A stretch of DNA of 64,000 bases from an uncultured Chloroflexia bacterium (GCA_963822175.1 CAWGGJ010000003.1:666287-730286), one strand, 5' to 3'; counted from the stretch's first letter, positions 4,368 through 61,271 are shown. Notes: generated by a model not told the origin, from the letters alone. Program-made: numbers and translations.

Positions 4368-4391
4368 ATTCCCCCATATGGGAATTTTTTA
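4368..4391 (+). terminator. intrinsic terminator candidate after the ABC operon
   Basis: ATTCCC..GGGAAT stem followed by a T run. Confidence 0.5.
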
Positions 4392-4419
4392 TATCATCCC
4401 CTTTTTAATTCCCTGAAAA

Positions 4420-4500
4420 GGGGATGATTATTACTCTCAAATTATGTATCGTATATCGGTCAACCGGTACACGGAGAAAAGAATGAAATCAAGTCGATTC
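4420..4500 (+). repeat. U repeat copy 2
   Basis: Homologous to 2366..2447. Preceded by a 13-bp perfect inverted repeat (4393..4405 / 4416..4428). Confidence 0.6.
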
Positions 4501-4554
4501 ACCATCGTGGAATCTCGGCTTGTCGAAATTTAAACCTGTGAGGAGGAAAAGAAT

Positions 4555-4719
4555 ATGGATAAGAAAACTGGTGGAATCATAGCAACAATTGTGGCGGTGC
4601 TCTTATGTGGCTGCCCTGGACTATGCCTGGTCAAGTCTAGCATGGCCAATGACATTTTAACAGTAAACATAATTATTCAAAATATTCCAATGAGATTTCC
4701 TCATTACATAATCTCATAA
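4555..4719 (+). CDS. small ORF (54 aa), possibly a truncated small membrane protein
   Basis: GAGGAGG RBS, then ATG. It starts MDKKTGGIIATIVAVLLCGCPGLCL and then runs into AT-rich non-hydrophobic sequence. Too short for the ORF track. Confidence 0.35.
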   Translation: MDKKTGGIIATIVAVLLCGCPGLCLVKSSMANDILTVNIIIQNIPMRFPHYIIS

Positions 4720-4781
4720 TACTATATTGGAGGAGCAGTTATGATCTTGATTAGGTACTTATAATTGCTAAGTTATCAGTG

Positions 4782-7283: not shown

Positions 7284-7463
7284 GTAGAAATAGCTTTTAC
7301 CTTAAATCAAGATATCTGTAAGCTATACTTCTTGTCTGATGGCTGGATAGTTTGAAATTATATATATTGTTTCGATCGCAATTGTTATATTTTTACGCTA
7401 TATGAGCAATAACAGGATGACTTGATTTTATAGCTTTTGCACACGTAATTAAAAATAAATAAA

Positions 7464-8420
7464 TTATCTCCATGAAGGATAGAAATCATTAGATGGATTA
7501 TTAGTGATTTGAGTTGTTCCAGACCCGTCAATGTTCGTGATAAAAATATCCAAATTATTGTTCTGATATGAATTAAAAGCAATTTTAGAACTATCGGGAG
7601 ACCAGGACGGTGCATAATTTACATATTGATTGGTGATCTGTTTCATGTTTATGAATGCATCTCTTGATGGATTTAAGTAACCAATAAAAATGTCGGAATT
7701 TGGATATCTCTGAACTGCAAAAGCAATTTTATCTCCGTCATGTGACCAAGCCGGATCCTGAGCGTATAAATCCGCAACAAGTAATTTGACATTCGTACCA
7801 TCAGTATTCATTACGTATAGACCAGGAAATATTCCTTGATCAATATCAATACGCGCTGAATAAAATACGATTTGTACATTATCAGGAGACCAAGATGGTT
7901 GATCATCAGCCACCGTATTATTTGTTAATCTTGTGATACCACTACCGTCCGAGTTCATAATATATATTTCGGTATTTCCGTCCCGATCTGAGGAAAAGGC
8001 AATCTTTTGCCCGTTAGAAGACCATTTTGGATACCTTTCATTAGCTGTTGTGTTAGTCACGCGCAATAAATCTGAGCCATCAATATTCATGATATAGATT
8101 TGATAACTTCCATCACGCCGCGATGAAAAAGTTACCTTTTTAAGGTCTGGAGAAATATCAGGCCAAAAGTCATCGGAAGGATCATTCGTTAGTCGTACTG
8201 CGTTAGTACCATCATCTACCATAACGAAGATTTCATAATTCCCTTCTCGATTTGTAGCAAATGCTATCTTTCGTTCAGGATACTTGTTTAATACTAGAGG
8301 GAGGTACATATTAAGATTATTTTCGTTATTTGATTGGAAACCACTCTCTGCAAAACCATTTACGTTAAAAATAAATATACTTGAAATTATCAGAATAAAA
8401 CGTAAAGATGTGAGTTTCAT
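7464..8420 (-). CDS. PD40 / TolB-like beta-propeller repeat protein, secreted
   Basis: Signal peptide and six or more repeats of the pattern P.WSPDG..I.F.S.R.G...IY.MN.DGS. Carries YLPLVLNK just after the signal peptide (8283..8306). Confidence 0.85.
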   Translation of the reverse strand: MKLTSLRFILIISSIFIFNVNGFAESGFQSNNENNLNMYLPLVLNKYPERKIAFATNREGNYEIFVMVDDGTNAVRLTNDPSDDFWPDISPDLKKVTFSSRRDGSYQIYIMNIDGSDLLRVTNTTANERYPKWSSNGQKIAFSSDRDGNTEIYIMNSDGSGITRLTNNTVADDQPSWSPDNVQIVFYSARIDIDQGIFPGLYVMNTDGTNVKLLVADLYAQDPAWSHDGDKIAFAVQRYPNSDIFIGYLNPSRDAFINMKQITNQYVNYAPSWSPDSSKIAFNSYQNNNLDIFITNIDGSGTTQITNNPSNDFYPSWR

Positions 8421-28941: not shown

Positions 28942-29086
28942 GGTAGGTTCTCCTCTTGATAAAGAGTATGCCAAAATGAAACTGCCAATACCAGTAGATT
29001 AACTGCCAAAAGACGCCAACTTTAAATCAAGCAGAGGTATTTGGATTCCAGTCCGAATACCTCTGGAATGTGCAATGATCAATAGC

Positions 29087-44807: not shown

Positions 44808-47244
44808 TCAGTGCTTAGCGCATTGTGACTGGGTAAATGTTTGGCTGGTGTTGCCGTCCAGATCGGAAACCATAAATCCCACCAGGTAATCTCCTGCAGG
44901 GGCATAAACGGCAGACCAGGTGAAGACGGTATCACTGCCGAAGGTGAACGTGTCGCCAGGCACTTCAACCACCTGGGTGACATTGCCGCTGGTATCCAAA
45001 TCCATCCATTTTTGCAGGATGGTGAAGGTATCTCCAGTCGGAAGGGGTGATCTCTGCGGGAGCACCGGCATCATCCGTCCCCTGGTAACCATATACCTGG
45101 GTCAGCTTGCCATCCATAAAGAGCAGCTGGGCAAATCTTTGCTCGCCTAAATCAGCAAAGGTATAGGTCCCATTGAGAGCATAAACAGCTTCTTCTGCTG
45201 TGGCACCATAGGTAGTGGGAGTGAATAATGCCAGCGTAGAAGATGTTCCATCTGAAACAGAAAACAGAGAGCCATCCCAGGTGAAGTTGATCTTGAACGA
45301 TTCACTATCCGGCCAGACCGGGTAATATATGCCGTTTAATTCGCGCGTTTCGGAGCTTTCTAGGTAATCCATATCCGCAACAAAGATCGAATTTGAGTTT
45401 GGATCATACAGCCCAATAAACAGGTACACATAGCCAATGTTCTCTCCACTGATGCTGGTGCTCAATTTTACCGATTCTCCAACAGAAAGCGAATCGCTCG
45501 AAGCTGTGATTCCTGATAATGTGATCGTCCCGGCCCCCGGTGCGCGGGAGTTAATCCCTGTGGTTGGGGCAACGGCTTCAGCGGCATCCGCAGTGAAGGA
45601 ACGGTCATTGTAGTGATACGCCAGGAAATCATCCCATAATGAAGAAGTAACAAAACGTTCGGCAAGGATATTGTAGGATTGCGGACCGGTATAAGGTGAA
45701 TTGTATGTGGTGGAGTTGGGGAAATAGATGGCAACCCCGGTGGAACCAGGCTTGCCCGTGCCATGTTTTTCGGCCACGATAACATTATTCATCGCCGTCA
45801 TGACCGCATCCGCGGCCTGGGTAACCTCATTACTATTTACCTCCCGGGAGACAAGCTGCACAAAGTGACCCAGGTCAATGTAGGATGGACCAGATTGCTT
45901 GCCAAATACACTGGTGTAGGATTGGGCATAGTTTCTTGCAGAAGCAATGATCGATTGGTCCTCGCTCTGTAATAGATAAGCAAAATTGTTGAATTGTGCC
46001 ATCAAGTCCGGTAGTGCATCCAGGTCCACTGCGGTGAGGGTTACACTGCGCCCAATTTGCTCTGCCAGCTGCCCGGCACTCACACTGTTGGTACTAAAAA
46101 AACTACCCATGGGTGAGCCCTGCCTGAGGAACTCCGCCCTGGCCTGGTCATCCACAATGCGCGAGTCCTGGTTTATATAAGTATCCACAACTTCTGAGGC
46201 CAGCTGTTGTGTGCTCATATCCGGGTTATCCACCAGCGCTTGCAGGAAAGCGGCATATGCCCATCCCAGGGATGGCTCAACTTCTTCCGAAGCTAGGGCT
46301 ATGTGAGCATGTGGCTGTAATGCTGCATACACTTCCATCTGGCTCATCAGGCAGGCATCCATGCCGATGATATCCAGCTTTTCCACCCCGGTCTGGCTGC
46401 TGATTTCCGAAAGCGCCTGGTCGATCTCAGATAGGAAAAGGAAATCCTCACCCAGGCCGGTGGCCAATGGGGCAGGACTGCTATCCCTGCCTCCCGGTGC
46501 CGGGTCGCTCCACCCACCCGGCCAACCCATGCCGTGGTCAGACAGCACCAGGGCATAGCGATCGGCAGGGTAATTTTGCATCGCCCAGGTGACAAAATCC
46601 ACCAGAGTATTTCCATCAGCCATATTCACTTCACCCAGGTCATCCAGCAGCTGCGAGTTGATGCGGTCGAGATCCTCATCCTGTGTCACCAGGTAGCGGC
46701 GGACAGATGTCCAGTCACCATCGCCCTGGTAGGCACCCCGGTAGCGATCCAGCTGCGCTACAATGGTCACCCGGTCGGTCGATCCAGCTCGCTCGGCTTC
46801 GTTCAGGTCGACAAAAATATCCTGCTCCAATACCTGGTCATCTGCATCGTCGTACAGCATGATCAACCATTTTTGACCTGACTGACCTGTGACGGGTACC
46901 CGGGTTGGGCGTGGCGTGTTGGTAGGACCGCTTTCCACCAGCGGACTGCTTTCGGTCGGTGGTTCGTAGAGTGGGGCAGATGTGTCCCCTTCACTCCCAC
47001 CGCCCCCACCCAGCAGGACATATAGAATGATGACGATGACGACGATCACCCCGCCACACCCACCCAGCTTACCTTTGGTGGGAATATTCATTCCGCCCCC
47101 CAGGCTGGGTCGATATGAGCCACCCCCGCTTCCGCCGGTTCCCCCAGTGCTGCTCGAGGGAGGCCTGCTTGGGGCTTCAGCGCGCTCAGTGGGTTTATCT
47201 GCCTTGCGGCGCCGTTGGACATCAATTTCAGGTTCGTTGCTCAT
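44808..47244 (-). CDS. membrane-anchored clostripain-like (peptidase C11, clan CD) protein, split by one frameshift near 45044-45047
   Basis: His/Cys dyad context LSDHGMGW and IIGMDACLM, one N-terminal TM helix, and GGAAGGAG RBS before ATG 47244. The C-terminal ~85 aa continue in another frame (ORF 44808..45092) across a G4/C4 run. Confidence 0.75.
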
Positions 47245-47386
47245 AGCGCATCTCCTTCCGGAGGTCATTGGTGATTATAGGATTGTAATACAATATTTTA
47301 TCCGATGATAAATGAAACATCACCCATTTTTCCCTCATCCATTTTAGTGGAGTCCATTTACTTAAAGCATTGTGATCAGATGGCTA

Positions 47387-47414
47387 TTGTAATTGTGAAT
47401 AATGGCGCGATAAT
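47387..47414 (+). promoter_or_regulatory. promoter candidate of beta-helix copy A
   Basis: TTGTAA, 16 nt, GATAAT. The same arrangement is conserved upstream of copies B and C. Confidence 0.45.
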
Positions 47415-47533
47415 AGGTATCAGCATCCGTATGTCCCACTATTTTGACTGAGGGAGATAGATATTCGGAAATATTAGAACCAGCCAAAGTGGAATTATCA
47501 TTTAATTGCGAGCATGAAGTGAGGAGGGTTACC

Positions 47534-50500
47534 ATGAGGAAAAAAGCTGCTTTCATAGTCCTTATTTTTATTCTTAGTCTTGGGTTGACACTTGCCTGGT
47601 TGTTAGGTGCACAGGCTTCTCCGGGTGTTGCCGCTTCTCCCTCTGCAGATCTGCACGTCTGCCTATCGGGCTGTTCATATGAAAACGTGCAGGATGCGGT
47701 GGATGCTAGCCATCGATGGGGATATCATCAAAGTGGCTGAGGGCACCTATACCGGTGTGAGTGCCCGCGAAGGGATCACCCAGATGGTCTACATCAGCGA
47801 GTCGATCACCATCCAGGGCGGCTACACCACGAGTGACTGGGAAACCCCAGAACCGGAGGTCAACATCACCACGCTGGATGCCAGGGGCAAGGGCGCGTGC
47901 TGTATATAGTGGGCATCTTTACTTCAAGCATCGCGGACTGCATATCACAGGTGGTAATGCCACAGGTCTTGAGCCTAACCAGAACGGTGGTGGGATTTAT
48001 ATGGATGCAAGTTGGAACTGGGACGAAGAACCAGCTCATTTACAGATAATCATATCTATGGAAACATAGCCAGCAAGGCGGTGGGGTCAATGATGACAGT
48101 TATGGCTCAGTGTATAGTGGAAACACCTTCAGCTCGAATTCTGCAGATGAGGGGTGGTGGGATGGCTACTAGATACTCTTCCCAATAAAGAACAACGTTT
48201 TGAGGAGAACAGCGCTTCTTCGGGTGGTGGACTGGCAGTACTGTATGGAAGTGTCATTCTGCAAGGCAATACTTTCACTGGTAATAGTGCTGGAAATTCA
48301 GGCGGTGGGTTGTTCAGCTACAATAGTGAATTGGTTTCTGACGCAGATAGTTTCAAATCAAATAGCGCACAATATGGTGGTGGATTGGCCATTTAAAACC
48401 CGATTGGCAGAGCTGGCAATATGTCAAAGTGGTCAATACCCTTGTTACAAACAACCAGGCTAGCGTAGAGGGAACGGGCATCTACATCTCCGGCATCTTG
48501 CTCCATTTGTGGCATACCACTCTGGCAAGTAATACCGGTGGGGATGGCAGCGGGCTCGCCATCGGTAACTACAATCCCGGGTCTGAAGCGTACATATCCA
48601 ATGTGGACCTACGCAATACGATTGTAGCGAGCCAAACCATCGGCTTGAACGTCAGCGACGGCAGCTCGGTAGCGTTGATAGCATCTTGTGGTACAGACCC
48701 CATCACCGTTACGAGGTACCTGCGGCAGAAGTGTCACTGGTCAACCAGCTTACCGGCGACCCAGATTTCAGCGACCCCGACAACGGCAATTTCCATATCG
48801 GCCCAGCTTCAGCTGCACGTGACACCGGGATGGTGAGTGGGTACCACCGACCTTGATGGATTCGTGCGTCCTATGGGGTTCGGTTATGACCTGGGTGCCT
48901 ATGAACATGCAGATGCTGCCTCAGCCTGCTTAAACGCCTTCGCTGAGCGGTGCCAATGTGGGCGCGAGCTAACTTATCAAATTGTTCTCACCAGCACCGG
49001 TGTGGGAGACATATCAATGTCGTGTTCACCGACACACTGGACAGCCCTGCCCGCGTCATATCAGTTGATCATGAAGGGAACTGCATCATCGAAGACCAGG
49101 TGGGGTGGTAGGGTCGTCTGTGAACCCGGTAACCTGAACATCGGTGATGTGATCAATGTCCTGGTTACAGTTGAAATTGACGCCAGTACGCCCTCAGACA
49201 GGCGCTGACCAACACGGTTACCGCGCGGTCAGACAAGGCTGGCACAGTACCCAGTCGATCATGTATGCCCAGGACTGTCACGTGCGTATCGGCGATAGCC
49301 CATCCGAATACACCTCTACCAGGCTGCTGTTGATGCGGCTTACCCTTTTGCTTGATCAAGGTGGCAGGCACCTGCGTCGGAGTGTTTGGACCAGAGGATA
49401 TCCGTCAACAGGTTTACCTGGATAAGAGCTGACCATCCAGGGAGGATATAACACCAGCAACTGGACCACGCCTGAACCTGAGACTCAACATCACCACTCT
49501 GGACGCTCTGCGGCCTGGGTCGTGTGTTCTATATCCTGGGTGATAGCGGCCTCAACACAATCACCATTGATGGCTTTGACATCACCGGAGGGAATGCTTA
49601 TGGGCAGATCGGAGACCACGATCCAAATGGGAGAAATGGAAGCTCAGGTGGAGGAATTTATATCTACGGTGGGAATGAACAGATCACGCTATCCAACAAC
49701 CACATCTATAACAACACAGCCAACGGCGGTGGGGGTTTGACCACCAGCTTCTGCAGTGGAACCCAACTCATCAATGACACCTTCACTGGTAACTACGCTG
49801 GGAGTGGAGGTGGTGGGTATTACCTGCATGCTGGTGGTGCTAATCTGACAGATGTGATCTTCGACTCAAATATTACCGCTGGTAACGGCGGAGGGATCGA
49901 TGTGATTGCTGGTAATGCCAATATCGTACGCGGAGCATTTATCAATAATCAAGCTGGTGGAATTGGTGGTGCAATGCGAGCTGAAATGGGCTGGTCTATC
50001 AACGAGTAAGTTATCTACTCCAATACAGCTAAGTATGGTGGCGGGATCGGAATATCTGATTTCACGAATTGGTCCACGTACACCAGCATCATCAACACAG
50101 AGATTGCTGGTAATTCAGCCAGCCAGGAGGGCTCGGGGGTATTCATCCCTTCGGGTCAAGTTTACATCTGCTTCATACTACCATAGCACGCAACACGGAC
50201 GGGGATGGGAGTGGTGTGACCTTGGTTGGTATGACTGGATGTCGCCAGGTGTCTCAACTTTGCTGATGACGGATACCATCCTTGCCAACCAAGAGGTGGG
50301 TATCAAGGTGCAGTGATGCCAGCACGGTCACGGTAAACAGCGTGCTCTGGTTTGCCAATACAGATGAACGTCTGGCAATCGGATGATGCCACGGTGTATC
50401 TGTCGAACGAACATACGGGCGACCCGCTCTTCCTCAACCCAGATTTCGGTGACTATCACATCGGCGAAACCTCTGCTGCCGGGATATGGGTGTGCCGAGT

Positions 50501-50615
50501 GGAGTGACGCTGGGATATAGACGGTGAGCGCCGCCCAATGGGTCCAGCCTGGGACCTGGGTGCAGACGAGTATTTTCTGAACTCGATCTTTCTGCCATTG
50601 ACCATACGTCATTAA
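47534..50615 (+). pseudogene. beta-helix/DUF11 surface protein paralog A, decayed (many frame changes)
   Basis: Homology to copies B and C is spread over at least 9 ORF fragments in all three frames. The RBS, signal peptide and C-terminal tail (IFLPLTIRH) are still recognisable. Confidence 0.8.
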
Positions 50616-50657
50616 TAACCTGGTAGTTTATAGCTGGTCTAACAGTTGATATAAAAC

Positions 50658-50687
50658 AACGCCTCGCTGATGCGAGGCGTTTGTTTT
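50658..50687 (+). terminator. intrinsic terminator after copy A
   Basis: AACGCCTCGC-TGAT-GCGAGGCGTT followed by TGTTTT. Confidence 0.75.
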
Positions 50688-50815
50688 ACTTGACACGATG
50701 GAATTATTCCCAAATTACTAACTGTTTCCTCCCCGTATCTGTGGTAAAATTTACACCTTTCTTAGGCGGACAGGATTTCCAATAAAAATCATTGATCCAT
50801 TGTGGTGTTGTGGAG

Positions 50816-50843
50816 TTGTAATTGTGAATAATGGCGCGATAAT
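50816..50843 (+). promoter_or_regulatory. promoter candidate of beta-helix copy B
   Basis: TTGTAA, 16 nt, GATAAT. Confidence 0.45.
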
Positions 50844-50960
50844 AGGTTCAGCATCCGTACATCCCACTGTTTTGACTGGGGTAGATAGATATTCGAAAAA
50901 ACATAATCAGCCAACGTGAAATCATCATTCAATCGCTAGTATGAAGTGAGGAGGGTTACC

Positions 50961-53900
50961 ATGAGGAATAAAGCTGCTTTCATAGTCATTATTTTTATTC
51001 TTAGCGGTGGGTTGACCTTTGCCTGGTTGTTAGGTGCCCAGGCTTCTCCGGGTGTTGCCGCTTCTCCCACTGCAGAGCTGCACGTCTGCCCATCGGCCTG
51101 CCCATATGAAAATGTGCAGGATGCGGTGGATGCTGCTACCGATGGGGACATCGTCAAAGTGGCTGAGGGCACCTATACCGGCGTGAGTGCCCGCGAAGGG
51201 ATCACCCAGATGGTCTACCTGAGCAAGACCATAACCATCCAGGGCGGCTACACCACCAGTGACTGGGTTACACCTAATCCGGAGGTCAATATCACCACGC
51301 TGGATGCCCAGGGGCAGGGGCGCGTGCTGTATATCGAAGGGGGTTATTGGGGTACTCCCACCATTGCTGGTCTTCATATCACCGGTGGTGACGCCCTCGA
51401 ACAAGCGAATGACCAAAATGGCGGTGGGGTGTACTGTTCACGGGGATACGGGATCACGCTTTCAAACAACCACATCTTCGAAAATACTGCCCAGGAGGGC
51501 GGTGGGGTCTATATGGATAGAGGCCATAACGCCACTTTTAATGGGAATACCATTAGCTCAAATACTGCCGAGGCGAATGGCGGAGGGATCGCATTTTTAC
51601 AAGGAGGAATATTATTAACTGAAAATGCCATCACCGCTAACACAGCTGGCCAGGGAGGCGGGCTGGTAACGCGATATAGCAATGTTACCCTCAATGGGAA
51701 CACCTGCAGCTTCAATATTGCTTATACTGAGGGTGGTTGTATGTTTGTGTTCAATAGCACGCTGGAACTCGATGCTAATGTCATTAATTCGAACATTGCT
51801 GAACGAGGTGGTGGGATGGCAAGTTTTGGTTCCCAGGAATCAGCAGGTTAACACACTTGTGGCCGACAACCTGGCCAGCCTGGAGGGATCTGGGATGTAT
51901 ATCTCAGGCTCCTCAATCCATCTTTGGCACACCACCCTGGTGCGCGACCTCGGGAGCCCGGTCAGCGGGATCGCAATCGGTAGCTGGAACCCCTGGTCAG
52001 GGTCAGACTCCTCGACGGTAGCTTTGACCAACACGATACTGGTGAGCCAAAACGTGGGGATGGACGTCACGGATGGCAGCCTGGTCGATGTAGACAACAT
52101 TCTTTGGTATAACACCCCCATCACTATATCGCAGGTGCTTTCGGCAGTGGTGATGGTAGAGAACCAGATCACAGGCGACCCAGACTTCATGGATCCAAGC
52201 AGTGGAGACTACCATATCGGTGTAGCTTCTGCCGCGCACGACGTCGGAATAGAGGCTGGGGTAACGACTGATATCGACAGCCAGGTGCGGCCAATGGGTT
52301 TCGGTTATGATCTTGGCGCGGATGAATTCGGCGAGGCTGCTTTAAGCCTGATTTTAGGTCCTTCCCTGGTGGGGGTAAACGTGGGGTCGGAATTGACCTA
52401 TCAGATCGTGCTGACCAGCAGTGGGACAATGAATACCAGCGGGGTGGTACTAACTGACACACTCGATACCATGCAACGGGCGATTGGGGTTGAGGCACCC
52501 GGTGGGAACTGCACGATCGAGGACCCGGGGTGGGGAGGCAGGGTGGTGTGCGCTCCTGGCACACTTTATCCCAACGAAGTCGTCACCATCTTGCTCACCG
52601 CCCAGGTGTCTGGCTCGGTTCCCTTGGGACAGGCAATGAGTAACCAGGTTGTGGCTAGTGCTAATGAGACGATCAACCGCACCAAACAGGTAACGGTGTA
52701 TGCCCAGGATTGCCATGTGCGCATTGGGAATGAGGTGACAGAATATTCTTCCGTCCAATACGCAGTGGACGCAGCCTATCCCACTGCACTGATCAAGGTG
52801 GCTGGCACCTGCATGGGTGTGTACGGCTCTGAGGGCTGGCAGCAACAAGGTTATCTGGATCAGAGCCTGACCATCCAGGGCGGCTATACCACCACCAACT
52901 GGACCACGCCGGATCCAGAGCTTAATATCACCACGCTGGATGCGCGCGGGCACGGGCGAGTGTTTTTCATCACTGAAACTGATGATATCGTCATCGATGG
53001 TTTGTATATCACTGGTGGGGATGCAAGCGAGCAACTTGGCGGTGAACATGGTCAGGGCGCAGGAGGAGGGCTGCTATGCTGGATTGCGCAAATTTCACTG
53101 ACCAACAACCACATCTTTGAAAACACCTCTGGAGGTATGTACACGGGTTTCTGCAACGGGGATATCATTGGGAACACATTCAGCGAAAATATTGGCACCG
53201 GATTATATTTGCATGCCAGTGGGCCTGTGTATGTTATTGAAAATATCTTCGACTCGAACAGCGGTACAGATGGAGGTGGAATGTGGGTGGATAATACCGG
53301 CGCTTACCTCTACAGGAATATCTTCACCCATAACACCGCTGTTAATGGTGGTGGGCTGTTCCTGTACTTGAGTGGGCCGATGAACGAGGATGGGTCACCC
53401 GCGACTAAGTCACTTCTCAACGAGAACATCATCGTTTCAAATACAGCTGAACGTGGCGGTGGACTGGTAATCACAAATGACGGAAGTGGGACTGGCACCT
53501 TAACTAACACAGTTATCGTCGATAACCAGGCTAGTATCGAGGGTGCTGGGATATATATTAATCAAGCTCTCAATGTCAAATTGTTGCAGACCACTCTTGC
53601 CCGCAATCGCGGCGGGGATGGCAGTGGCGTGTGTATTGGTGAATCACCCATAGGAGGTCAACAGCCATGGCACTCTACCGTGGTCATGACCAACACCATC
53701 CTGGCCTTTCAGGATATAGGAATCCGGGTGACTGAAGCGAGTACCCTCACTGTAAATGGTGTACTATGGTTTGCCAATACAGATGATGTCTGGCAATCGA
53801 ACGATGCCACGGTGTACCTGTCAAACGAACATACTGGCGATCCGCTCTTCCTCAACCCCGATTTCGGTGACTATCACATTGGCGAACCTCTGCCGCCCGG

Positions 53901-54032
53901 GATATGGGTGTGCCGAGTGGAGTATCGTTGGACATAGACGGCGAGCGTCGTCCGATGGGTCCAGCCTGGGACCTGGGTGCAGACGAGTACTTCCTGAACT
54001 CGCTCTTTCTGCCATTGACCCTGCGGAATTAA
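50961..54032 (+). pseudogene. beta-helix/DUF11 surface protein paralog B, two frameshifts (near 51845 and 53885)
   Basis: ORFs 50946..51851 and 51682..53937, plus a third-frame tail ending LFLPLTLRN at 54032, together reconstruct one ~1020-aa homolog of copy C. Confidence 0.75.
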
Positions 54033-54073
54033 TAAAACTAGATATTTATCTGAGGTCTTCCAGTTGGTAAAAA

Positions 54074-54108
54074 ACATACGCCTCGCATGATGCGAGGCGT
54101 ATGTTTTA
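54074..54108 (+). terminator. intrinsic terminator after copy B
   Basis: 14-bp perfect stem ACATACGCCTCGCA / TGCGAGGCGTATGT followed by a T run. Confidence 0.8.
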
Positions 54109-54237
54109 CTCGACACGATGGATTAATTCCCAAATTACTAACTTTTTTTCCCTGATTTGTGGTATTAAAATTGATGCCTTTCTGAGGCAAACAGGATCGC
54201 TTATAGAAAATTATTGATATGTTTGTCTAGTTTAGAG

Positions 54238-54265
54238 TTGCATTTATAAATATTAGCGCGATAAT
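54238..54265 (+). promoter_or_regulatory. promoter candidate of beta-helix copy C
   Basis: TTGCAT, 16 nt, GATAAT. Confidence 0.45.
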
Positions 54266-54381
54266 TGGATAAGTATCCGTACACTCCACTTTTCTGACCA
54301 GGGGAGGCAGAGATAAGCAGAGCAGGAACAGCCAAAGTGGAATCATCATTCAATTGCTATCATGAAGCGAGGAGGGTTACC

Positions 54382-57300
54382 ATGAGGAAAAAAGTTACTT
54401 TCATAGTCCTTATTTTTATTCTTAGCGGTGGGTTGACGCTTACCTGGTTGTTGGGTGCACAGGCTTCTCCGGGTGTTGCCGCTTCTCCCACTGCAGAGCT
54501 GCATGTCTGCCCATCCGGCTGCCCATATGAAAACGTGCAGGATGCGGTGGACGCAGCCAATGAGGGAGATATCATCAAAGTGGCGGAGGGCACCTATACC
54601 AGCGTGAGTGCCCGTGAAGGAGTCACCCAGACGGTCTACCTGAGCAAGACGCTCACCATCCAGGGTGGCTACACCACCAGTGACTGGGAGACCCCAGAAC
54701 CGGAGGTCAACATCACCACGCTGGATGCTCAGGGGCAGGGGCGGGTGATCACAATCAAGGGCGAAATTGCATCCACCATTGCTGGACTGCACATCACCGG
54801 TGGCAATGCCCTGGTGATGGATGATAACCATAATGATGGGGGCGGCATTTATACCCAACTGAATATGTTACCTGCTGGCACTGTCCTGACGCTGAAGGAC
54901 AACCATATCTACGGGAACACCGCCTGGAGTGGCGGGGGAGCTTATCTTGACGGTCATGGTGATTACCTGCTGGAGGGCAACACCTTCGAAACCAATACTG
55001 CCAGCGATCGCGGCGGTGGGGCGGTGGTCTTCAACCAGTTTGCTACCCTGAACAACAACAATTTCGATCACAACAGCTGCGGCAGCATGGGTGGTGGGCT
55101 GGCAATCCTGTATGCCGACGCCATCCTGCAAAGCAACAGCTTTACCGAAAACGAGGCGGGGGAGGCCGGCGGTGGGTTGTTTGTGTACAACAGCTCCTTC
55201 GAGGCGGAGGGAGATTGGATCGTAAAGAACAGTAGCGGGCGCGGCGGCGGGTTGGCTGTTTTTGGTGAAATGAACCGCCATACCTGGCGGGATAACTGGA
55301 TGGTCAATGTAGTCGTCGCCTACAATGAAGCCACCACAGAGGGCTCCGGCATATACGTCGGCGGCTGCCCGTTGCACCTGTGGCACGCCACCCTGGTAAA
55401 TAACATCGGCGGAGGTGACAGTGGCATCCTGATCGGCGACTGGAATCCCTGGGACATCCCCACCACTTCCGAGGTCGAGCTGCTCAACACGATCGTGACC
55501 ACGCAGACCACCGGCATTGCGGTGGGAGACGGTAGCTCAGTGGCGGTCGACAGTATCCTGTGGTATGCGGATGCCATCACGCTCACCGAAGTGCCCGAAG
55601 CGGACGTCTCGATTGTCAACCAGTTCACCGGCGACCCAGCCTTTGCTGACCCACCCGCGGCAGACTTTCACCTCAATCCCACTTCAGCAGCACGCGACGT
55701 AGGGATGGTGAGCGGGGTAGCCAGTGATATTGACGGATGGGTGAGACCGATGGGTTTCGGCTTTGACCTGGGTGCTTTCGAACACCACGACGCAGCCATC
55801 AGCCTGTCTGCAATACCGCACCTGAGCGGCGCTAATATTGGGGAGGAGCTCACTTATCAAGTTGTGCTAACCAGCAGTGGTGCGGGAGACAACGTCAACG
55901 TGATCCTGACCGACACGCTGGATGCATGGCAGCGCCCTCTAACAGTTGATTCGCCAGATGGGAACTGCAGCATCGAAAATCCGGATTGGGGCGGCACAGT
56001 GGTCTGCGAACCCGGCAACCTGAACATCGGTGATGTGATCGATATCCAGGTGACAGTCGAAGTCGACGCTGCAGCATCACTGGGTGACGAGCTGATCAAC
56101 ACCGTGACCGCGCATGCAGACAAGGCTGCTAACACCGTCCAATCGGTGGTGTATGCGCAGGATTGCCACGTGCGCATCGGCAACAGCCCCACCGAGTATA
56201 CTTCGGTGCAGGAGGCAGTGGAGGCGGCCTATCCATACGCGCTGGTGAAGGTGGCAGGCACCTGCATGGGCGTCTATGGGCCGCAAGGAGCACGCCAGCA
56301 GGTCTTGCTCGAGCAGACACTGACCCTGCAAGGTGGCTATACCACCGCCAACTGGACCACGCCCGACTCTGAGACCAACATCACCACGCTGGACGCACGC
56401 GGATTGGGGCGTGTGCTGTTCATCAACACCCAAACGCCAGGTGGAACGTTGATCGACGGTCTGCACATCACCGGCGGGAACGGTGCTTACCAGGTGGGTG
56501 GGCATTCACCGTTCGAACACTTTGGAAGCCGCGGCGGTGGGGTGTATGTGTATGGCTCTGACCCCACGTTTTCGAACGATCACATCTACGGCAACATCAC
56601 TCCTGAGGAAGGCGGAGGCATGGCGACCAGCTTCTGCAACTGTACGGTCCGTAACACCACCTTTTCCGGCAATACGACGCTGACGGTGGGAGGTGGATTG
56701 TCAGCCCATGCCGGTGCCGCTGAAGTGTATGACAGCCTTTTCGAAGGGAACAGCGCAGAGACCGGTGGCGGATTCGGTTCAGCTGCAGCGGGGGGTGGTC
56801 GTTTCTTCCGCACCACCTTCATCAATAATCATGCCACTGGTTACGGCGGCGGTTTAGCACTTGAAACGGCAGCCTGGCTGAATGAGACAGTGATCCTGAA
56901 CAATACGGCAGAGCGCGGGGCGGGGATTGCCTTTTTCGAAGGGATCAGCCCATTTAGCCCCTATGCCGTTCTGACCAACACTGTCATAGCCGACAACCAG
57001 GCGACGTTGGAAGGCGCGGGGGTTTTCATCCCTTCGGGAGGGGCGGTGAAAATGCTGCACACCACCCTGGCACGCAATATTGGTGGGGATAGCAGCGGTG
57101 TGACCCTGAGCTGGTACGACTGGATGTCGCCTGGAACTTCGACTCTACTGATGACGGATACCATCCTGGCATATCAAGACGTGGGAATCAAGGTGAGTGA
57201 TGCCAGCACGATCACGGTAAATGGGGTATTGTGGTTTGCCAATACAGATGATGTCTGGCAATCGAACGATGCCACGGTGTACCTGTCAAACGAACATACT

Positions 57301-57498
57301 GGCGATCCGCTCTTCCTCAACCCGGATAACGGTGACTATCACATAGGCGAGACATCTGCTGCACGGGATATGGGTGTGCCGAGTGGCGTGACGTGGGATA
57401 TAGATGGCGAGCGCCGTCCAATGGGTCCAGCCTGGGACCTGGGTGCAGACGAGTATTTCCTGAACTCGATCTTTCTGCCATTGACCCTGCGGAATTAA
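54382..57498 (+). CDS. secreted right-handed parallel beta-helix (PbH1-type) repeat protein with a central DUF11-like domain, paralog C (intact)
   Basis: GAGGAGGG RBS and signal peptide. Two homologous modules are present (cap C..C.YE.VQ.AV.AA, then L.IQGGYTT..W, then GGG-containing helix turns, then GDP.F..P..GDYH...SAARD.G......DIDG..RP.G...DLGA.E). They are separated by a DUF11-like fold (LTYQVVLTSSG...C). Confidence 0.85.
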   Translation: MRKKVTFIVLIFILSGGLTLTWLLGAQASPGVAASPTAELHVCPSGCPYENVQDAVDAANEGDIIKVAEGTYTSVSAREGVTQTVYLSKTLTIQGGYTTSDWETPEPEVNITTLDAQGQGRVITIKGEIASTIAGLHITGGNALVMDDNHNDGGGIYTQLNMLPAGTVLTLKDNHIYGNTAWSGGGAYLDGHGDYLLEGNTFETNTASDRGGGAVVFNQFATLNNNNFDHNSCGSMGGGLAILYADAILQSNSFTENEAGEAGGGLFVYNSSFEAEGDWIVKNSSGRGGGLAVFGEMNRHTWRDNWMVNVVVAYNEATTEGSGIYVGGCPLHLWHATLVNNIGGGDSGILIGDWNPWDIPTTSEVELLNTIVTTQTTGIAVGDGSSVAVDSILWYADAITLTEVPEADVSIVNQFTGDPAFADPPAADFHLNPTSAARDVGMVSGVASDIDGWVRPMGFGFDLGAFEHHDAAISLSAIPHLSGANIGEELTYQVVLTSSGAGDNVNVILTDTLDAWQRPLTVDSPDGNCSIENPDWGGTVVCEPGNLNIGDVIDIQVTVEVDAAASLGDELINTVTAHADKAANTVQSVVYAQDCHVRIGNSPTEYTSVQEAVEAAYPYALVKVAGTCMGVYGPQGARQQVLLEQTLTLQGGYTTANWTTPDSETNITTLDARGLGRVLFINTQTPGGTLIDGLHITGGNGAYQVGGHSPFEHFGSRGGGVYVYGSDPTFSNDHIYGNITPEEGGGMATSFCNCTVRNTTFSGNTTLTVGGGLSAHAGAAEVYDSLFEGNSAETGGGFGSAAAGGGRFFRTTFINNHATGYGGGLALETAAWLNETVILNNTAERGAGIAFFEGISPFSPYAVLTNTVIADNQATLEGAGVFIPSGGAVKMLHTTLARNIGGDSSGVTLSWYDWMSPGTSTLLMTDTILAYQDVGIKVSDASTITVNGVLWFANTDDVWQSNDATVYLSNEHTGDPLFLNPDNGDYHIGETSAARDMGVPSGVTWDIDGERRPMGPAWDLGADEYFLNSIFLPLTLRN

Positions 57499-57824
57499 GA
57501 TCACATCCTAGAAAGTAGGCTATACATCACACAATTATGAATGAAACGATGATATTTTAATCAATAAATAGGTTTTACAGACCATAGACGAACAACTTCT
57601 ACAATACCTGTTGTGTGGTTTATGGGTTGCATCAATAGACGTAAAGGTGGCACCTGATAACTACTTGGAGATGGCAAGGCAATTTCAATGTAATTCCAAT
57701 ACTTGGTGACTCCCAACAGGTGAACTCGGGTGTGTTGCGAATTTATCCCAGGGGAGATTAATGCTTCTAAAGTGCTGGAGATTTGATTTTCCAGGTAGAT
57801 AAATAACTTAGAAAGGAAGCAGAC

Positions 57825-59387
57825 ATGCAAACACGAAGATGGATACTAATACTTTTCGCTTTGGTAGCAGGATTAGTTTTAACAGCGGCTTTTCTTGCTA
57901 TTCTGGCGCGTCCCGTCTCAGCAGATGCAACCATTCTTTATGCTAAACCAGGCGGGGCAATCTCTGGATCGTGCGATAGCTGGGATGACGCCTGTGACTT
58001 GCAGTTCGCTCTCACCTCGGCCATCTCAGGCACCGAAATCTGGGTGGCGCATGGAGTGTACACACCCGGGATGGATATAGAGTCAACCTTCCAACTTAAA
58101 ATCGATGTTGCCCTTTATGGCGGCTTTGCCATGACTGAGACGCTACGCGACCAACGTAACTGGCAGCTCAACCTCACTGTGCTGAGCGGTGACATCGATG
58201 GCAACGATACCACCGACCCCAACGGCGTGGTGACGGATACGAATAATATCCATGGCAACAACGCCTTTCATGTTCTGGACGGCAGCGGGACCAACGCCAC
58301 TGCCATCCTGGACGGATTTACCGCCACAGCTGGAAATGCAATCGGAACTATCGGCTATTACGACGCCCTAGGCGGTGGGATGATTATTACACCATCCGGT
58401 AGTCCTACCGTTCAGAATATCAGTTTTATTGGCAACCATGCCAACGGTTATGGCGGAGGATTTTATAATGAAGGTAACCTGGTACTCTCCCATGTTGTTT
58501 TTATTAATAACACATGCAATAATGGGGGTGGGGGCATATTAACTTACGGGAGTCCCGTCCTCACCGATGTGGATTTCATCGGGAATCAGGCAGTTATCGG
58601 CGGAGGACTTAACATCCAGGGGAGTTACAATACCGTGACCATCAACCAGGCCAGATTTATCGGGAATCGCGCGTTTAGCAATACGTATTACACATATGGC
58701 GGGGGAATGTATGAAAATCAGGGAGAGGGCAGCAGCCTGAACCTGACAAATGCGATATTTAGTGGAAATATATCGACCTGGTACGGCGGTGGAATGGTAA
58801 TTTCTGTGGGTGATGTACAGATGACCAATGTTCTCTTCTACGGCAATTGGGCTGGCGATTCCGGAGGCGGGATGTCGATTTATCAAACCGCTCCTGAGAT
58901 GACGAATGTTACCTTCAGCGGTAACTGGTCAAATTATGGTGGGGGGATCTATATCGATGCACTTAACGGCTTCCCACTCAACCTAGCGAACAGCATCTTT
59001 TGGGGGAATTCCGGACCATATGGAAGTCAATTCGACAAACAAATCTGGATTCATGCTGGACTGGTGAACGCCTCGTACAGCGACATTCAAGGTGGATATA
59101 CCGGCGAAGGCAATATAAACGTTGACCCACAATTCACTTTTCCCATCACCGCCACCGTTGCACCCACCACCACCGGTGATTATCACTTACAGATCATCTC
59201 TCCCGCCATCGATGCTGGTGATAACCGAGCTATTGCTGTCACCACCGACCTGGACGGCAAAATGCGTAAAATGGATATAGCCAGTGTGCCCGATACGGGC
59301 TTCGGCACACCACCGATTGTGGATATGGGTCCTTACGAAGATGGCTTGGTTGTCAGGTTCTTCTTGCCCGTCATTTCAAAGGAATGA
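57825..59387 (+). CDS. secreted beta-helix repeat protein D
   Basis: Signal peptide, repeated N..GGG..(N/I) turns, and C-terminal TDLDG..R......DMGPYE followed by the tail FFLPVISKE. Confidence 0.8.
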   Translation: MQTRRWILILFALVAGLVLTAAFLAILARPVSADATILYAKPGGAISGSCDSWDDACDLQFALTSAISGTEIWVAHGVYTPGMDIESTFQLKIDVALYGGFAMTETLRDQRNWQLNLTVLSGDIDGNDTTDPNGVVTDTNNIHGNNAFHVLDGSGTNATAILDGFTATAGNAIGTIGYYDALGGGMIITPSGSPTVQNISFIGNHANGYGGGFYNEGNLVLSHVVFINNTCNNGGGGILTYGSPVLTDVDFIGNQAVIGGGLNIQGSYNTVTINQARFIGNRAFSNTYYTYGGGMYENQGEGSSLNLTNAIFSGNISTWYGGGMVISVGDVQMTNVLFYGNWAGDSGGGMSIYQTAPEMTNVTFSGNWSNYGGGIYIDALNGFPLNLANSIFWGNSGPYGSQFDKQIWIHAGLVNASYSDIQGGYTGEGNINVDPQFTFPITATVAPTTTGDYHLQIISPAIDAGDNRAIAVTTDLDGKMRKMDIASVPDTGFGTPPIVDMGPYEDGLVVRFFLPVISKE

Positions 59388-59532
59388 AGATCCCGACAGT
59401 GACAATGCAAGAAGGGACTAGTAAGCGCAGGAATTTCCTATCTTGCAGGCCTTGCAACCAGCTATATTAGGATGCTATATCCCGGGTAAGCATGCCTGCT
59501 GATTAATTAGGGTAGTTCATAATACCAAAATC

Positions 59533-59561
59533 GAAGGGTGAGTCTTCTGACTCGCCCTTTT
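59533..59561 (+). terminator. intrinsic terminator after gene D
   Basis: 11-bp stem AAGGGTGAGTC / GACTCGCCCTT with a 4-nt loop, followed by a T run. Confidence 0.8.
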
Positions 59562-59741
59562 TGATGATTCGATAGGATGCAAACCCATGCTCTTGATTTT
59601 ACAAACCCTGGCTACCCCCTCGTTACTGTTTCTATGAATAAACAATATTAAGGGAATTTACCAACTCAACAAGAGAAAACTTAAAATATTGCGGATTTCA
59701 CATAAACCCCTTGTATTTATTTACCCACTACAGACAGACAC

Positions 59742-61271
59742 TCATTTTATCATCACCGGAAGCCAGAAATTCACCAGGATCACATACTCAAATGATCCAA
59801 TGTCATTTGCAGCACCTTGCGGACGGGGCATACCGCGCTGATCCACAGTCACCGGATGACCATCGGGATCCGTGGAAGATGCAGCATCGATCGCCGGACT
59901 ACCTGCTAATAATGCATGCGTTGGGGTATATCCGCCATGATATCCCAGTGGTCCGAGCATGGGGTTTTCCCCATAAATGTTGCCGGTCTGATCGCCTGTG
60001 ATGGTGCAACCGCTTGTATTTTGGATCAGATTGTAACCATAGGAACTGAATGTTCCAAAGCAATCCGGTCCGTTCGGGCCATCACCACCCGCCAGCAAGG
60101 TATTTTTCAAAATCACCAACGTGCCGAAATTATAGATTCCACCGCCGCCTGCTCCGCCGGCTGAGTTGCCACTTAAGCTGACGTTAGTCAGCGTCAAAGT
60201 GGACTCGCTGGAGTTGTACAACCCTCCGCCCCGGTTGCCGGCAGTGTTACCACTGAAGGTGACATTCAACAGCGTGGAAGTACCAAGATTAATCATCCCA
60301 GCGCCTTGGTCATTGGCAGAGTTACCGCTGAAGGTGACGTTGGTTAGCGTGGATGTCCCAGGATATTCGGTGATCATTCCTCCACCACTGAGATTGATGG
60401 CGGAGTTATCCATGAAGTTAACGTTCATCAGCGTGGCAATATTAGTGTTCGTCATCCCTCCACCATGGTACTTGGCGGAGTTACTGAGGAAGGTGACATT
60501 CGTCAGTGTGGCTGTGCCAGGGATACCGTTGAACATCCCACCGTTTTTAGGAGCGGAGTTGCCAACGAAAACGACATCCGTCAACATGGCAATACCAGCA
60601 TTATGCATCCCGCCACCGTTTCCATCATATGAGGAAGGTGTGGCAAAGTTCCCGTTGAAGACGACGTTCGTGAGCGTGGCGGTGCCAGTGTTATAAATTC
60701 CACCGCCGTAAACATCCGTGGAATTCGTGTTGAAAATAACGTTTGCCAGGGTTGCGTTGCCATAATGATTGTACAACCCACCGCCACCATGCTGGGCAAA
60801 ACTACCACTAAAAGTGACATTCATCAGCAAAGTTGTACCAGAGTTATACATCCCGCCGCCTGAATTAATAACACCAGTGGCAAAACCATTGGCAATGGTC
60901 AGACCTATAAAAGCCGTGCTTCCAGCCGTTACACGGAAAATTTGAGAAGCATGGTTACCATCGACTGTCAGGCTATCCGGTCCGGGACCATTGATGGTCA
61001 GATTTTTATCAATAAATAACGGACCCAGATTTAAGACGATCGTCCCACTAACACTGAAGTTAATCGTATCCCCAACATCTGCAACCTGGATCGCATCTCG
61101 CAGCGAGCAATCACCATCGCTGCAGCTGCCGTCGTTTTCATCGGCAAGGGTATTAACGGTCAGCGTGGCTGCCAGGGTTTGTTTCGGTGACAGCCCACCA
61201 CTGATCATCATTACACAAAGGAGGAGGACGAGAAATATTCTTGATTGGCTGATATTTCGATTGGTGGACAT
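59742..61271 (-). CDS. secreted beta-helix repeat protein E (CSLRDAI-type N-terminus, resembling what NCBI names choice-of-anchor Q)
   Basis: Signal peptide, DGDCSLRDAI motif, about 14 GGG-containing turns, and VDQRG.PRP.G...DIGSFE followed by the tail NFWLPVMIK. Confidence 0.8.
   Translation of the reverse strand: MSTNRNISQSRIFLVLLLCVMMISGGLSPKQTLAATLTVNTLADENDGSCSDGDCSLRDAIQVADVGDTINFSVSGTIVLNLGPLFIDKNLTINGPGPDSLTVDGNHASQIFRVTAGSTAFIGLTIANGFATGVINSGGGMYNSGTTLLMNVTFSGSFAQHGGGGLYNHYGNATLANVIFNTNSTDVYGGGIYNTGTATLTNVVFNGNFATPSSYDGNGGGMHNAGIAMLTDVVFVGNSAPKNGGMFNGIPGTATLTNVTFLSNSAKYHGGGMTNTNIATLMNVNFMDNSAINLSGGGMITEYPGTSTLTNVTFSGNSANDQGAGMINLGTSTLLNVTFSGNTAGNRGGGLYNSSESTLTLTNVSLSGNSAGGAGGGGIYNFGTLVILKNTLLAGGDGPNGPDCFGTFSSYGYNLIQNTSGCTITGDQTGNIYGENPMLGPLGYHGGYTPTHALLAGSPAIDAASSTDPDGHPVTVDQRGMPRPQGAANDIGSFEYVILVNFWLPVMIK

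Follow-up and report, generated by a model that had tools for sequence, protein, structure and literature searches.

C-terminal sorting signals and the YLP-box

The nearest described counterpart of the protein tails considered here is the YLP-box, which can be written in full as ([RK])-[VILF]-[YFW]-L-P-[LVIM]-[VIT]-x-[RK], followed by 0-8 residues. NCBIfam release 20 lists two models, NF050076 (sort_motif_YLP; 11 positions, curated cut-off 15 bits) and NF053834 (ultrashort_CTERM; 10 positions, cut-off 10 bits), both titled "YLP-box putative sorting motif-containing protein". A search of the literature on the YLP-box found no experimental or published account. The better-characterized C-terminal signals follow other designs. 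The IPTL-CTERM and PEP-CTERM signals of the exosortase / archaeosortase systems consist of a signature motif, a transmembrane helix, and an Arg cluster. The T9SS C-terminal domain is likewise a C-terminal sorting element, but it is folded, spans ∼70-100 aa, and is found only in Bacteroidota-type diderm cells. The CAAX box, associated with Rce1 / CPBP-type membrane proteases, amounts to a few residues at the very C-terminal end that serve as a signal for sorting or processing.

The YLP tail resembles each of these signals in part. Like the LPXTG signal of the sortases, it is C-terminal, contains an LP dipeptide, and occurs on surface proteins that are probably exported by Sec, but it lacks the T-G, the ∼20-residue hydrophobic segment, and the Arg/Lys cluster, and totals 8-10 residues in place of the 30-40 of LPXTG. 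Relative to IPTL-CTERM / PEP-CTERM, it follows a miniature plan (YLP, three hydrophobic residues, and one basic residue) that cannot span a membrane. The likeness to the CAAX box is one of analogy only, as the YLP tail has no Cys and no lipidation logic, and CAAX acts in the cytosol, whereas YLP would act outside the cell. Because it has neither a transmembrane segment nor an Arg cluster, the YLP-box is unlike every sorting signal of known mechanism.

Five tails in the window

The DNA analysed, hereafter the window, is a stretch of 64,000 nucleotides in which five genes, A to E, end in such a tail (Table 1). Translation of A-E recovers all five tails at the coordinates given in the original prediction. 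Gene A ends in ..EYFLNSIFLPLTIRH (LPLTIR, 50592..50609), B in ..NSLFLPLTLRN (core 54009..54026), C in ..NSIFLPLTLRN (core 57475..57492), D in ..VRFFLPVISKE (core 59364..59381), and E in ..VNFWLPVMIK (core 59745..59762, minus strand), each followed by a stop, with 0 or 1 residue after the basic residue. The window tails were considered as LPXTG signals and rejected, as LPLTLRN, LPVISKE, and LPVMIK run directly into the stop with no TG and no transmembrane segment. They were also rejected as PEP-CTERM / IPTL-CTERM signals, since just three hydrophobic residues and one basic residue come after LP; models of these families were absent among the matches of the window tails in a profile search at E<=10.

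Table 1. Location of the tails, their genes, and associated features in the window
Feature	Coordinates	Strand	Basis
MYLPLVLNK past the signal peptide of the PD40 protein	8283..8309	-	10.5 bits, noise range
C11 (clostripain-type) peptidase, membrane-anchored, one frameshift	44808..47268	-	PF03415 E=5e-37; two overlapping ORFs
Gene A, disrupted paralogue of C	47534..50615	+	fragmented ORFs; tail translated
Tail of A, NSIFLPLTIR+H	50580..50612	+	translation
Gene B, paralogue with 2 frameshifts	50961..54032	+	ORFs and comparison with paralogues
Tail of B, NSLFLPLTLR+N	53997..54029	+	translation; out of frame with gene body
Gene C, intact beta-helix protein	54382..57498	+	ORF list, NCBIfam, Pfam
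Tail of C, NSIFLPLTLR+N, YLP-box variant	57463..57495	+	scoring matrix 22.1 bits
Gene D, intact 520-aa beta-helix protein	57825..59387	+	ORF list, NCBIfam, Pfam
Tail of D, VRFFLPVISK+E, YLP-box variant	59352..59384	+	scoring matrix 14.0 bits
Gene E, intact 509-aa CSLREA / Chlam_PMP beta-helix protein	59742..61271	-	ORF list, NCBIfam, Pfam
Choice-of-anchor Q domain of E, aa 436-496	59784..59966	-	NF041518 81.5 bits, cut-off 25
Tail of E, VNFWLPVMIK, YLP-box variant, FWLP subtype	59745..59774	-	scoring matrix 11.8 bits

All five tails exist, but the expectation of five tailed beta-helix proteins holds for the intact genes C, D, and E only. Gene A, when compared with C, shows ∼29 frameshift events along with 2 in-frame stops, and frameshifts near 51835 and 53886 leave the tail of B out of frame with its body. 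The ORF of C opens at GTG 54337, with ATG 54382 as the likely start. Its product begins with a stretch resembling a signal peptide and further contains DUF11, two choice-of-anchor Q matches, and, at the end, a YLP-type tail; the profile matches are to NF041518 in NCBIfam and to DUF11 and DUF5123 in Pfam. The D protein combines a signal-peptide-like N-terminus with Chlam_PMP repeats. Choice-of-anchor Q membership, taken as an NF041518 score of at least 25 bits just ahead of a C-terminal anchor, is found for E (81.5 bits, directly ahead of its tail) and C (48.2 bits), while the match in D (aa 450-505) is sub-threshold at 23.3 bits. The N-termini of the window proteins look like Sec signal peptides by eye. 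The closest named homologues of these proteins come from Anaerolineae / Chloroflexota metagenome-assembled genomes.

The shared tail is real, and the tails lie far beyond chance. A custom-made scoring matrix of 10 positions was built from 31 independent tails found outside the window, with true tails scoring 11.2-27.1 bits on leave-one-out and internal positions of control proteins reaching 10 bits or more at a rate of 4.5e-5. When all six frames of the window (∼128,000 positions) are scanned, the best four matches are those of A-D (22.1, 21.7, 21.2, and 14.0 bits); the E tail, at 11.8 bits, is level with two noise matches. The E tail is kept C-terminally as [FLV]WLPxxx[KR] in 10 orthologues at 51-59% identity (among P0002-P0012). 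Orthologues of D (71-81% identical) retain ..LVV[KR]FFLP[ILV]I[TR][KN][EQ] despite an additional DUF11 domain ahead of the tail. Over their final ∼225 nt, A, B, and C share 93% DNA identity, so their tails amount to a single observation, or one evolutionary event; the independent observations number three, namely A/B/C, D, and E. The earlier statement that the tails are not conserved as DNA is correct for C, D, and E, whose tail codons differ.

The tail had been put forward as possibly undescribed, a view superseded by the two NCBIfam models. These match the canonical tails of the homologues of the window proteins at 12-18 bits and stop exactly on the basic residue. The tails of C, D, and E give no match to either model even at E<=10, although HMMER filters may mask weak scores, and a single T->V change in the C tail yields 14.3 bits with NF053834 against the cut-off of 10. 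As neither model detects the window tails, their YLP-box membership rests on the scoring matrix and on orthologue conservation: they fit the consensus [VILF]-[YFW]-L-P-[LVIM]-[VIT]-x-[RK], with A-C at 21-22 bits. The core [VIL]-[YF]-L-P-L-[VI]-x-[RK], the near-terminal position, the phylum, and the carriers, which are large, apparently exported proteins including choice-of-anchor Q proteins, are common to both. The window tails differ in having F or W where the model has Y, in placing T (A-C), S (D), or M (E) within the hydrophobic triplet, and in the one trailing residue of A-D. Every variant residue (F, W, T, S, and M) is also found in natural homologue tails. Judged by this comparison, the window tails are a divergent form of the YLP-box, a motif already curated as a putative sorting signal.

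The original prediction also linked the tails to a string in the PD40 protein. MYLPLVLNK is present there, but its K lies at +5, its score falls in the noise range, and it has no NCBIfam model match. Anything like it occurs in 1 of 120 PD40 homologues, and it sits in a low-GC segment (36-39% GC). The YLP-like string of this protein is probably coincidental.

Distribution of the motif in Chloroflexota

Comparative evidence shows that the motif exists, that it lies near the C-terminus, is restricted to one phylum, and does not depend on family or fold, and that it is associated with apparently exported proteins and interchangeable with known anchors. Among E homologues, 29 of 119 have the pattern [VIL]-[YFW]-L-P-[LVI]-[VI]-x-[RK] plus 0-8 residues at the C-terminus; among D homologues, 79 of 116 do. 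The residues trailing the homologue motif number 0 (33 proteins), 1 (18), 2 (12), 3 (10), and up to 8; where there is one, N is the commonest, as in B and C. When genomes are scanned for YLPLVLR directly before a stop codon, Chloroflexota account for 76 of the 120 loci, and the motif closes an ORF of at least 100 aa in 61/76 of these against 2/44 outside the phylum, where the remainder are either short ORFs or, in sigma factors, TGG read-through. Conservation extends beyond the search pattern, with V/I/L at -1 in 53/58 and R/K at -2 in 24/58 tails, and synonymous codons vary (66 distinct 24-mers among 75).

Enrichment at C-termini holds in the non-seed neighbouring genes, where 13 further boxes lie within 6 aa of the C-terminus, 4 are internal, and none is N-terminal. 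Approximately 3% of the sampled neighbouring genes bear a YLP tail, and a few internal copies of the box occur (L049_2, L060_0, L073_3, and P0015). Carrier proteins have a median length of 690 aa and come from many families with no relation to one another. In line with the expected correlation with signal peptides, an N-terminal hydrophobic segment is present in 78% of carriers and 34% of other genes, as assessed by eye and a hydrophobicity heuristic. Long Thr/Pro-rich linkers precede 5/58 tails, and D orthologues hold on to the tail with or without the additional DUF11 domain.

At the place that the YLP tail takes in the window proteins, other homologues have an IPTL-CTERM, T9SS, SLH, or dockerin end or an LPXTG-sortase fusion. 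IPTL-CTERM (TIGR04174) directly follows the choice-of-anchor Q domain in P0095 and P0120 (28.2 and 26.1 bits), the T9SS C-terminal tail (TIGR04183) is found in P0105 (27.8 bits), and the LPXTG signal (TIGR01167) occupies the tail position in P0019, P0025, P0030, and P0118. The interchangeable anchors were foreseen correctly, but they had been attributed to an N-terminal domain type, and the domain in question is the C-terminal choice-of-anchor Q (NF041518).

Possible roles of the tail

The proposal that the tail is an anchor or sorting tag gains support from its replacement of IPTL-CTERM, T9SS, SLH, dockerin, and LPXTG ends, its C-terminal enrichment, and its occurrence with unrelated domains. 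The homologue tails, the genome scan, the varied exported carriers, the swapped anchors, and the AlphaFold2 model together favor sorting or retention. On balance, the five tails are probably diverged YLP-boxes of the Chloroflexota type, read by an envelope factor that retains exported proteins. The N-terminal signal peptide would direct such a protein to Sec for export, and the beta-helix would fold outside the membrane while the unstructured, hydrophobic, basic-capped C-terminal peptide stays exposed. A putative envelope factor, either a sorting enzyme or a receptor, would recognise this peptide and hold the protein at the envelope of Chloroflexota, which is multilayered and non-lipid. The YLP tail would thereby take the role of the LPXTG, IPTL-CTERM/PEP-CTERM, T9SS, and SLH ends of homologous choice-of-anchor Q proteins. 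Recognition of the tail and retention of the protein are what we infer. Counting against this reading are the design of the tail, unlike that of any signal of known mechanism, the absence of a conserved partner gene from the 76 loci of 8 kb, the few internal copies, and the failure of both NCBIfam models to detect the window tails.

The tail could instead be purely structural, closing the beta-helix / choice-of-anchor Q fold as its final strand or as a cap; in favour of this, it consistently lies 5-13 residues past the D.G..E domain end in this beta-helix family. The AlphaFold2 model of E is confident in the helix (mean pLDDT 91.5), but residues 501-509 have a mean pLDDT of 48 and no secondary structure, so the E tail is predicted to be unstructured. 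An identical type of tail also follows Thr/Pro-rich linkers and DUF11, glycosidase-like, and peptidase-like modules, and occurs on tiny 96-aa proteins, which makes a purely structural role so improbable that it can nearly be dismissed. Codon variation, unrelated carriers, and the AlphaFold2 model support the earlier view that selection acts on the peptide, and also its being a module outside the fold. A very improbable mechanism, suggested by the original prediction, has the neighbouring C11 peptidase, an Arg/Lys-specific enzyme, cutting the tail or carrying out transpeptidation at its fixed basic residue. The C11 gene adjoins the array, and the divergent C11-D orthologue pair is preserved in L121 and L122 even with other genes inserted nearby; yet the adjacency is kept only in these two closely related genomes and, as they are syntenic throughout, may be simple inheritance. 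A C11 homologue lies within 8 kb of 1 of the 76 Chloroflexota YLP loci and in 0/3 more distant homologue loci (L123-L125), and the gene is frameshifted in the window and split in L122 into two called genes of 555 and 271 aa. Furthermore, 27/29 E-type and 33/79 D-type tails end on the basic residue itself, so that cleavage after it would take nothing off.

Two further explanations dispense with a sorting enzyme or with anchoring. Known tail-specific proteases prefer non-polar C-terminal residues over R/K, which argues against the tail being a quality-control or degradation tag for such a protease. This idea, together with a signal for passage through or release from an outer layer, would make the tail the mark of a non-anchoring step. 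Its near-terminal position on exported proteins and the diderm-like layers in tomograms of some Chloroflexota (PMC13319060) are compatible with such a step, but homologues alternate the tail with anchoring ends (LPXTG, IPTL-CTERM, and SLH) and not with secretion signals alone, and we regard it as distinctly improbable. Rather unlikely, though credible, is a non-enzymatic sticky end, a Pro-kinked, basic-capped hydrophobic heptapeptide acting without dedicated sorting machinery by direct insertion into the membrane interface, sheath, or proteinaceous outer layer, or by zipping onto other tails. It is consistent with the lack of any conserved partner gene in the 76 Chloroflexota YLP loci of 8 kb, the tolerance of 0-8 trailing residues and many substitutions, the predicted disorder of the E tail, and the multilayered Chloroflexota envelope without BAM or LPS genes (PMC13319060). 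However, L and P hardly vary and the position in front of them is strongly biased towards aromatic residues, so the YLP-box is more specific than generic hydrophobicity demands; seven hydrophobic residues would also partition weakly into a membrane, by estimate only.

Returning to the envelope factor, we tentatively raise the possibility that the reader of the YLP-box is a new kind of sorting machinery that needs no membrane-spanning segment. An equally tentative example would be a wall- or outer-layer transpeptidase or receptor that fixes a large set of exported proteins to the outer, non-lipid layers surrounding filamentous Chloroflexota. If so, the conserved divergent C11 and D genes could additionally be a dedicated protease-substrate pair, and the FLP and FWLP tails of the window would mean that the set of substrates is wider than the curated HMMs capture.

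Beta-helix genes and their tails

Five genes encoding right-handed beta-helix proteins (A–E) lie between 47.5 and 61.3 kb of the window. A, B and C are paralogues of one another, D contains Chlam_PMP repeats, and E combines an N-terminal CSLREA domain and Chlam_PMP repeats with a clearly recognizable choice-of-anchor Q domain (NF041518, 81.5 bits, residues 436–496 of 509). On translation, all five tails read exactly as originally noted. C, D and E are the only intact genes of the five. In gene A, frameshift-aware alignment to protein C reveals ∼29 single-base frameshift events plus two in-frame stops; gene B has two frameshifts, because of which its tail is out of frame with its body. With one more frameshift in the gene of the adjoining clostripain-type peptidase, C11, these events form a cluster that reflects either pseudogene decay in this region or errors left in an unpolished assembly. 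For comparison, the 150-aa ORF listing of window positions 1–43000 contains intact ORFs of at least 800 aa, two of which are given in the table.

The last ∼225 nt of A, B and C are 93% identical, as compared with just 64–74% DNA identity in the middles of the genes. The three tails are therefore not independent, and the independent observations are A/B/C, D and E. The original statement that the tails are not conserved at the DNA level holds for C, D and E, the tail codons of which differ, but not for the 3′ ends of A, B and C. The three paralogues are mosaics with both ends 83–89% identical in DNA, namely ∼560 nt at the 5′ end (upstream region and signal peptide) and ∼350–490 nt at the 3′ end, a pattern that points to gene conversion, or to both ends being under stronger constraint.

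The tails were scored with a 10-position matrix built from 31 tails from elsewhere, leaving out the window tails and the close orthologues of E. Tails A–C score 21–22 bits, D 14.0 and E 11.8, against a leave-one-out range of 11.2–27.1 bits for the training tails; scores of 10 or more occur at 4.5e-5 per internal position. When the whole window is scanned in six frames, A–D are the four top sites and E is level with two noise hits. The tail of E, [FLV]WLPxxx[KR], is kept at the C-terminus of ten orthologues with an overall identity of just 51–59%.

Coordinates of features in the window and at loci of other genomes (L-numbers)
Feature	Sequence	Position	Detail
Low-GC segment	Window	4001–8420	36–39% GC vs ∼50% elsewhere
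WD40 lipoprotein-like gene	Window	4782–7283	833 aa
PD40 gene	Window	7464–8420	
Intact ORF, ≥800 aa	Window	26518–28974	
Hydrophobic protein	Window	29087–30937	Minus strand, 616 aa
Intact ORF, ≥800 aa	Window	31305–33803	
Frameshift cluster	Window	44808–54032	C11, A and B
A/B/C mosaics	Window	47400–57600	
Frameshifts in B	Window	near 51835 and 53886	
C11–D gene order	L121	7322–12193	HIT, XseA, XseB, DUF212, epimerase, C11, D orthologue
C11–D gene order	L122	6292–11554	Same order
Small secreted protein	L068	1957–2248	
ORF with internal box	L049	2174–7247	Box at aa 940
ORF with internal box	L073	4180–7411	Box at aa 528
ORF with internal box	L060		Box at aa 509

The YLP-box in curated models and genomes

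The tails had been proposed as an undescribed signal; NCBIfam already curates the motif. At a lax threshold, short C-terminal segments match two NCBIfam entries that share the name "YLP-box putative sorting motif-containing protein": NF050076.1 (sort_motif_YLP), with 11 positions and a 15-bit cut-off, and NF053834.1 (ultrashort_CTERM), with 10 positions and a 10-bit cut-off. Scores of 12–18 bits are reached by canonical tails, among them ..VYLPLVLR, ..FVYLPLVMK and ..NRIFLPMITR, in alignments that end at the basic residue. Neither the window tails nor the FWLP orthologues of E match either model, and a single T→V change in the tail of C gives 14.3 bits on NF053834. The window tails are thus sub-threshold variants of a known motif and constitute a new, divergent member of the curated YLP-box. 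A full-text literature search returned no description of the motif or of experiments on it, and an envelope study of the phylum (PMC13319060) makes no mention of it; as far as could be found, the motif is documented in NCBIfam only.

Of the homologues, 29 out of 119 for E and 79 out of 116 for D have the motif as their C-terminal ending. Among the tails of the D set, the basic residue is followed by zero (33 proteins), one (18), two (12), three (10) or up to eight residues; a single trailing residue is most commonly N, as in A–C, and Pro is frequently the last residue of an extension. Both sets commonly have F at the aromatic position, W being common among the E homologues only, and T, S and M are found inside the triplet.

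A genome scan for YLPLVLR with a stop codon directly after it, with one genome per species, returned at least 120 loci. Among the 120 matches listed, 76 are from Chloroflexota (Anaerolineae, Thermoflexia, Chloroflexia, Caldilineae, Ardenticatenia and Herpetosiphonaceae), and the motif closes an ORF of 100 aa or more in 61 of these 76 loci vs 2 of the 44 others; the remaining non-Chloroflexota matches listed are short ORFs or TGG read-through, such as the sigma-factor segment YDRYLPLVLRW. Positions left free by the search pattern are conserved, with V/I/L at −1 in 53 of 58 loci and R/K at −2 in 24 of 58. A repeat or terminator acting at the DNA level is rejected, as synonymous sites are free to vary: 66 distinct 24-mers occur among 75 tails from the scan, and selection therefore acts on the peptide, as had been claimed. 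The predicted enrichment at C-termini is borne out in the neighbouring non-seed ORFs of Chloroflexota loci, which contain 13 further boxes within six residues of the C-terminus vs four internal and no N-terminal ones. Roughly 3% of neighbouring genes carry a box.

A 4.5 kb contig binned with candidate division WOR-3 (metagenome-assembled genome, L116) encodes two YLP-type tails, ..IYLPLVLR and ..QQYLPVILRSG, the latter closing a 1301-aa ORF, owing either to mis-binning or to occurrence of the motif outside the phylum. A family of small secreted proteins (∼95–125 aa; L068, with similar ORFs in L021 and L036) comprises a signal peptide, a GGxYxLxGGxW segment and a YLPLVLR tail.

Exchange with known anchors and independence of fold

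The strongest argument for a sorting or retention element is that known anchors replace the tail directly after the choice-of-anchor Q domain. Homologues carry at this site IPTL-CTERM (TIGR04174, 28.2 and 26.1 bits), a T9SS tail (27.8 bits), SLH or dockerin domains, or a true LP[EDNS]TG fused to a sortase domain. The shared tail is real, and the proposed sorting tag is a reasonable reading of it. Reading the LP of the tail itself as a sortase signal is rejected, as the sortase-fused homologues use the true LP[EDNS]TG. In four beta-helix/choice-of-anchor Q homologues (P0019, P0025, P0030 and P0118), LP[EDNS]TG lies immediately ahead of sortase domain PF04203 within one polypeptide, and no transmembrane segment intervenes. 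The last 60 residues of another protein, P0015, contain the box KIYLPLVKK (NF053834, 14.3 bits) followed by a classical hydrophobic segment and basic tail; the box is here combined with a membrane-anchor-type ending and does not replace it. A further recurrent C-terminus among E homologues, [KQ]RFYR plus 4–7 residues and a final Pro (e.g. KRFYRLSFP), is present in P0032, P0039, P0053, P0060, P0074, P0086, P0094, P0096, P0101, P0108 and P0116, one of which is from Verrucomicrobiota. The two such tails tested, from P0086 and P0053, are unmatched in NCBIfam, and this ending may be the last strand of a C-terminal domain or another short signal.

Tail carriers belong to many unrelated families with a median length of 690 aa. 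An N-terminal hydrophobic segment is present in 78% of carriers vs 34% of other genes, further transmembrane segments are rare, and long Thr/Pro-rich linkers precede the tail in 5 of 58. Close orthologues of D (71–81% identity) contain an extra DUF11 domain, yet end in the same ..LVV[KR]FFLP.. tail. AlphaFold2 predicts a confident beta-helix for E (mean pLDDT 91.5), with an average pLDDT of 48 for residues 501–509 and no secondary structure after approximately residue 495. The YLP tail is independent of the fold and has no predicted structure. It is a peptide at or near the C-terminus of apparently exported proteins, restricted to one phylum and interchangeable with known anchors.

Internal full-consensus boxes lie at module junctions in L049, L073 and L060, each followed by a Gly/Ser/Pro/Thr-rich segment, and could be processing sites in polyproteins. 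At least one of these rare boxes, in L049_2, marks a gene-fusion junction: the second half of L049_2 exists in L009_3 as a stand-alone gene that has a signal peptide itself.

Candidate partners and proposed envelope retention

The adjoining C11 gene, frameshifted and encoding a membrane-anchored clostripain-family peptidase (PF03415, E=5e-37), had been proposed to process the tails. Two related genomes, L121 and L122, are syntenic throughout the neighborhood and keep the divergent pair of C11 and a D orthologue. A–C and E are absent from both, so the A–C array and E are lineage-specific additions between C11/D and the downstream genes. The C11 orthologue of L122 is also split into two ORFs. 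Outside these two genomes, YLP genes have a C11 homologue nearby in 1 of 76 loci, and the three more distant homologue loci have none. C11 is therefore not a general partner of the motif, and a specific relation to D is possible. Gene clustering around the 76 YLP loci yields generic regulators only (histidine kinase, OmpR-type and SARP/TPR regulators), with no candidate sorting enzyme, and Pfam identifies no sortase, exosortase, rhomboid or CPBP-type enzyme among the membrane and unknown proteins of the window. One 616-aa protein of the window has no Pfam match at E≤0.001, and its N-terminal half reads as hydrophobic and apparently multi-pass.

The PD40 gene had been considered to share the motif core, as MYLPLVLNK after its signal peptide. 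Its K is at +5, its score is in the noise range and NCBIfam does not match it; a similar, weak case occurs in 1 of 120 PD40 homologues, and the resemblance is treated as coincidental. An N-terminal version of the motif is likewise rejected, with no such case in Chloroflexota-locus ORFs of at least 100 aa. The low-GC segment harboring PD40 and a WD40 lipoprotein-like gene may stem from horizontal transfer.

Sludge, sediments and mats are rich in filamentous Chloroflexota, whose multilayered envelope is unusual. A putative envelope factor would recognize the tail left exposed after Sec export and would retain the tailed protein on this envelope. BAM and LPS genes are absent from Chloroflexota, and the outer layers are proteinaceous or polysaccharide (PMC13319060). 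Compared with a classical three-part signal, the YLP tail is a miniature that is unable to span a membrane, with the signature YLP followed by three hydrophobic residues and then one basic residue. A free carboxylate at the basic residue is not required, since zero to eight residues may follow it.

The concept is not new with this window, as curators had already flagged the motif. Common F/W, T/S/M and trailing-residue variants escape the curated HMMs, and YLP-box proteins are consequently under-annotated. At stake is how filamentous Chloroflexota keep large adhesin-like and hydrolytic proteins at the surface, and a signal of 8–10 residues without a transmembrane helix would differ in its working from every characterized C-terminal sorting system.
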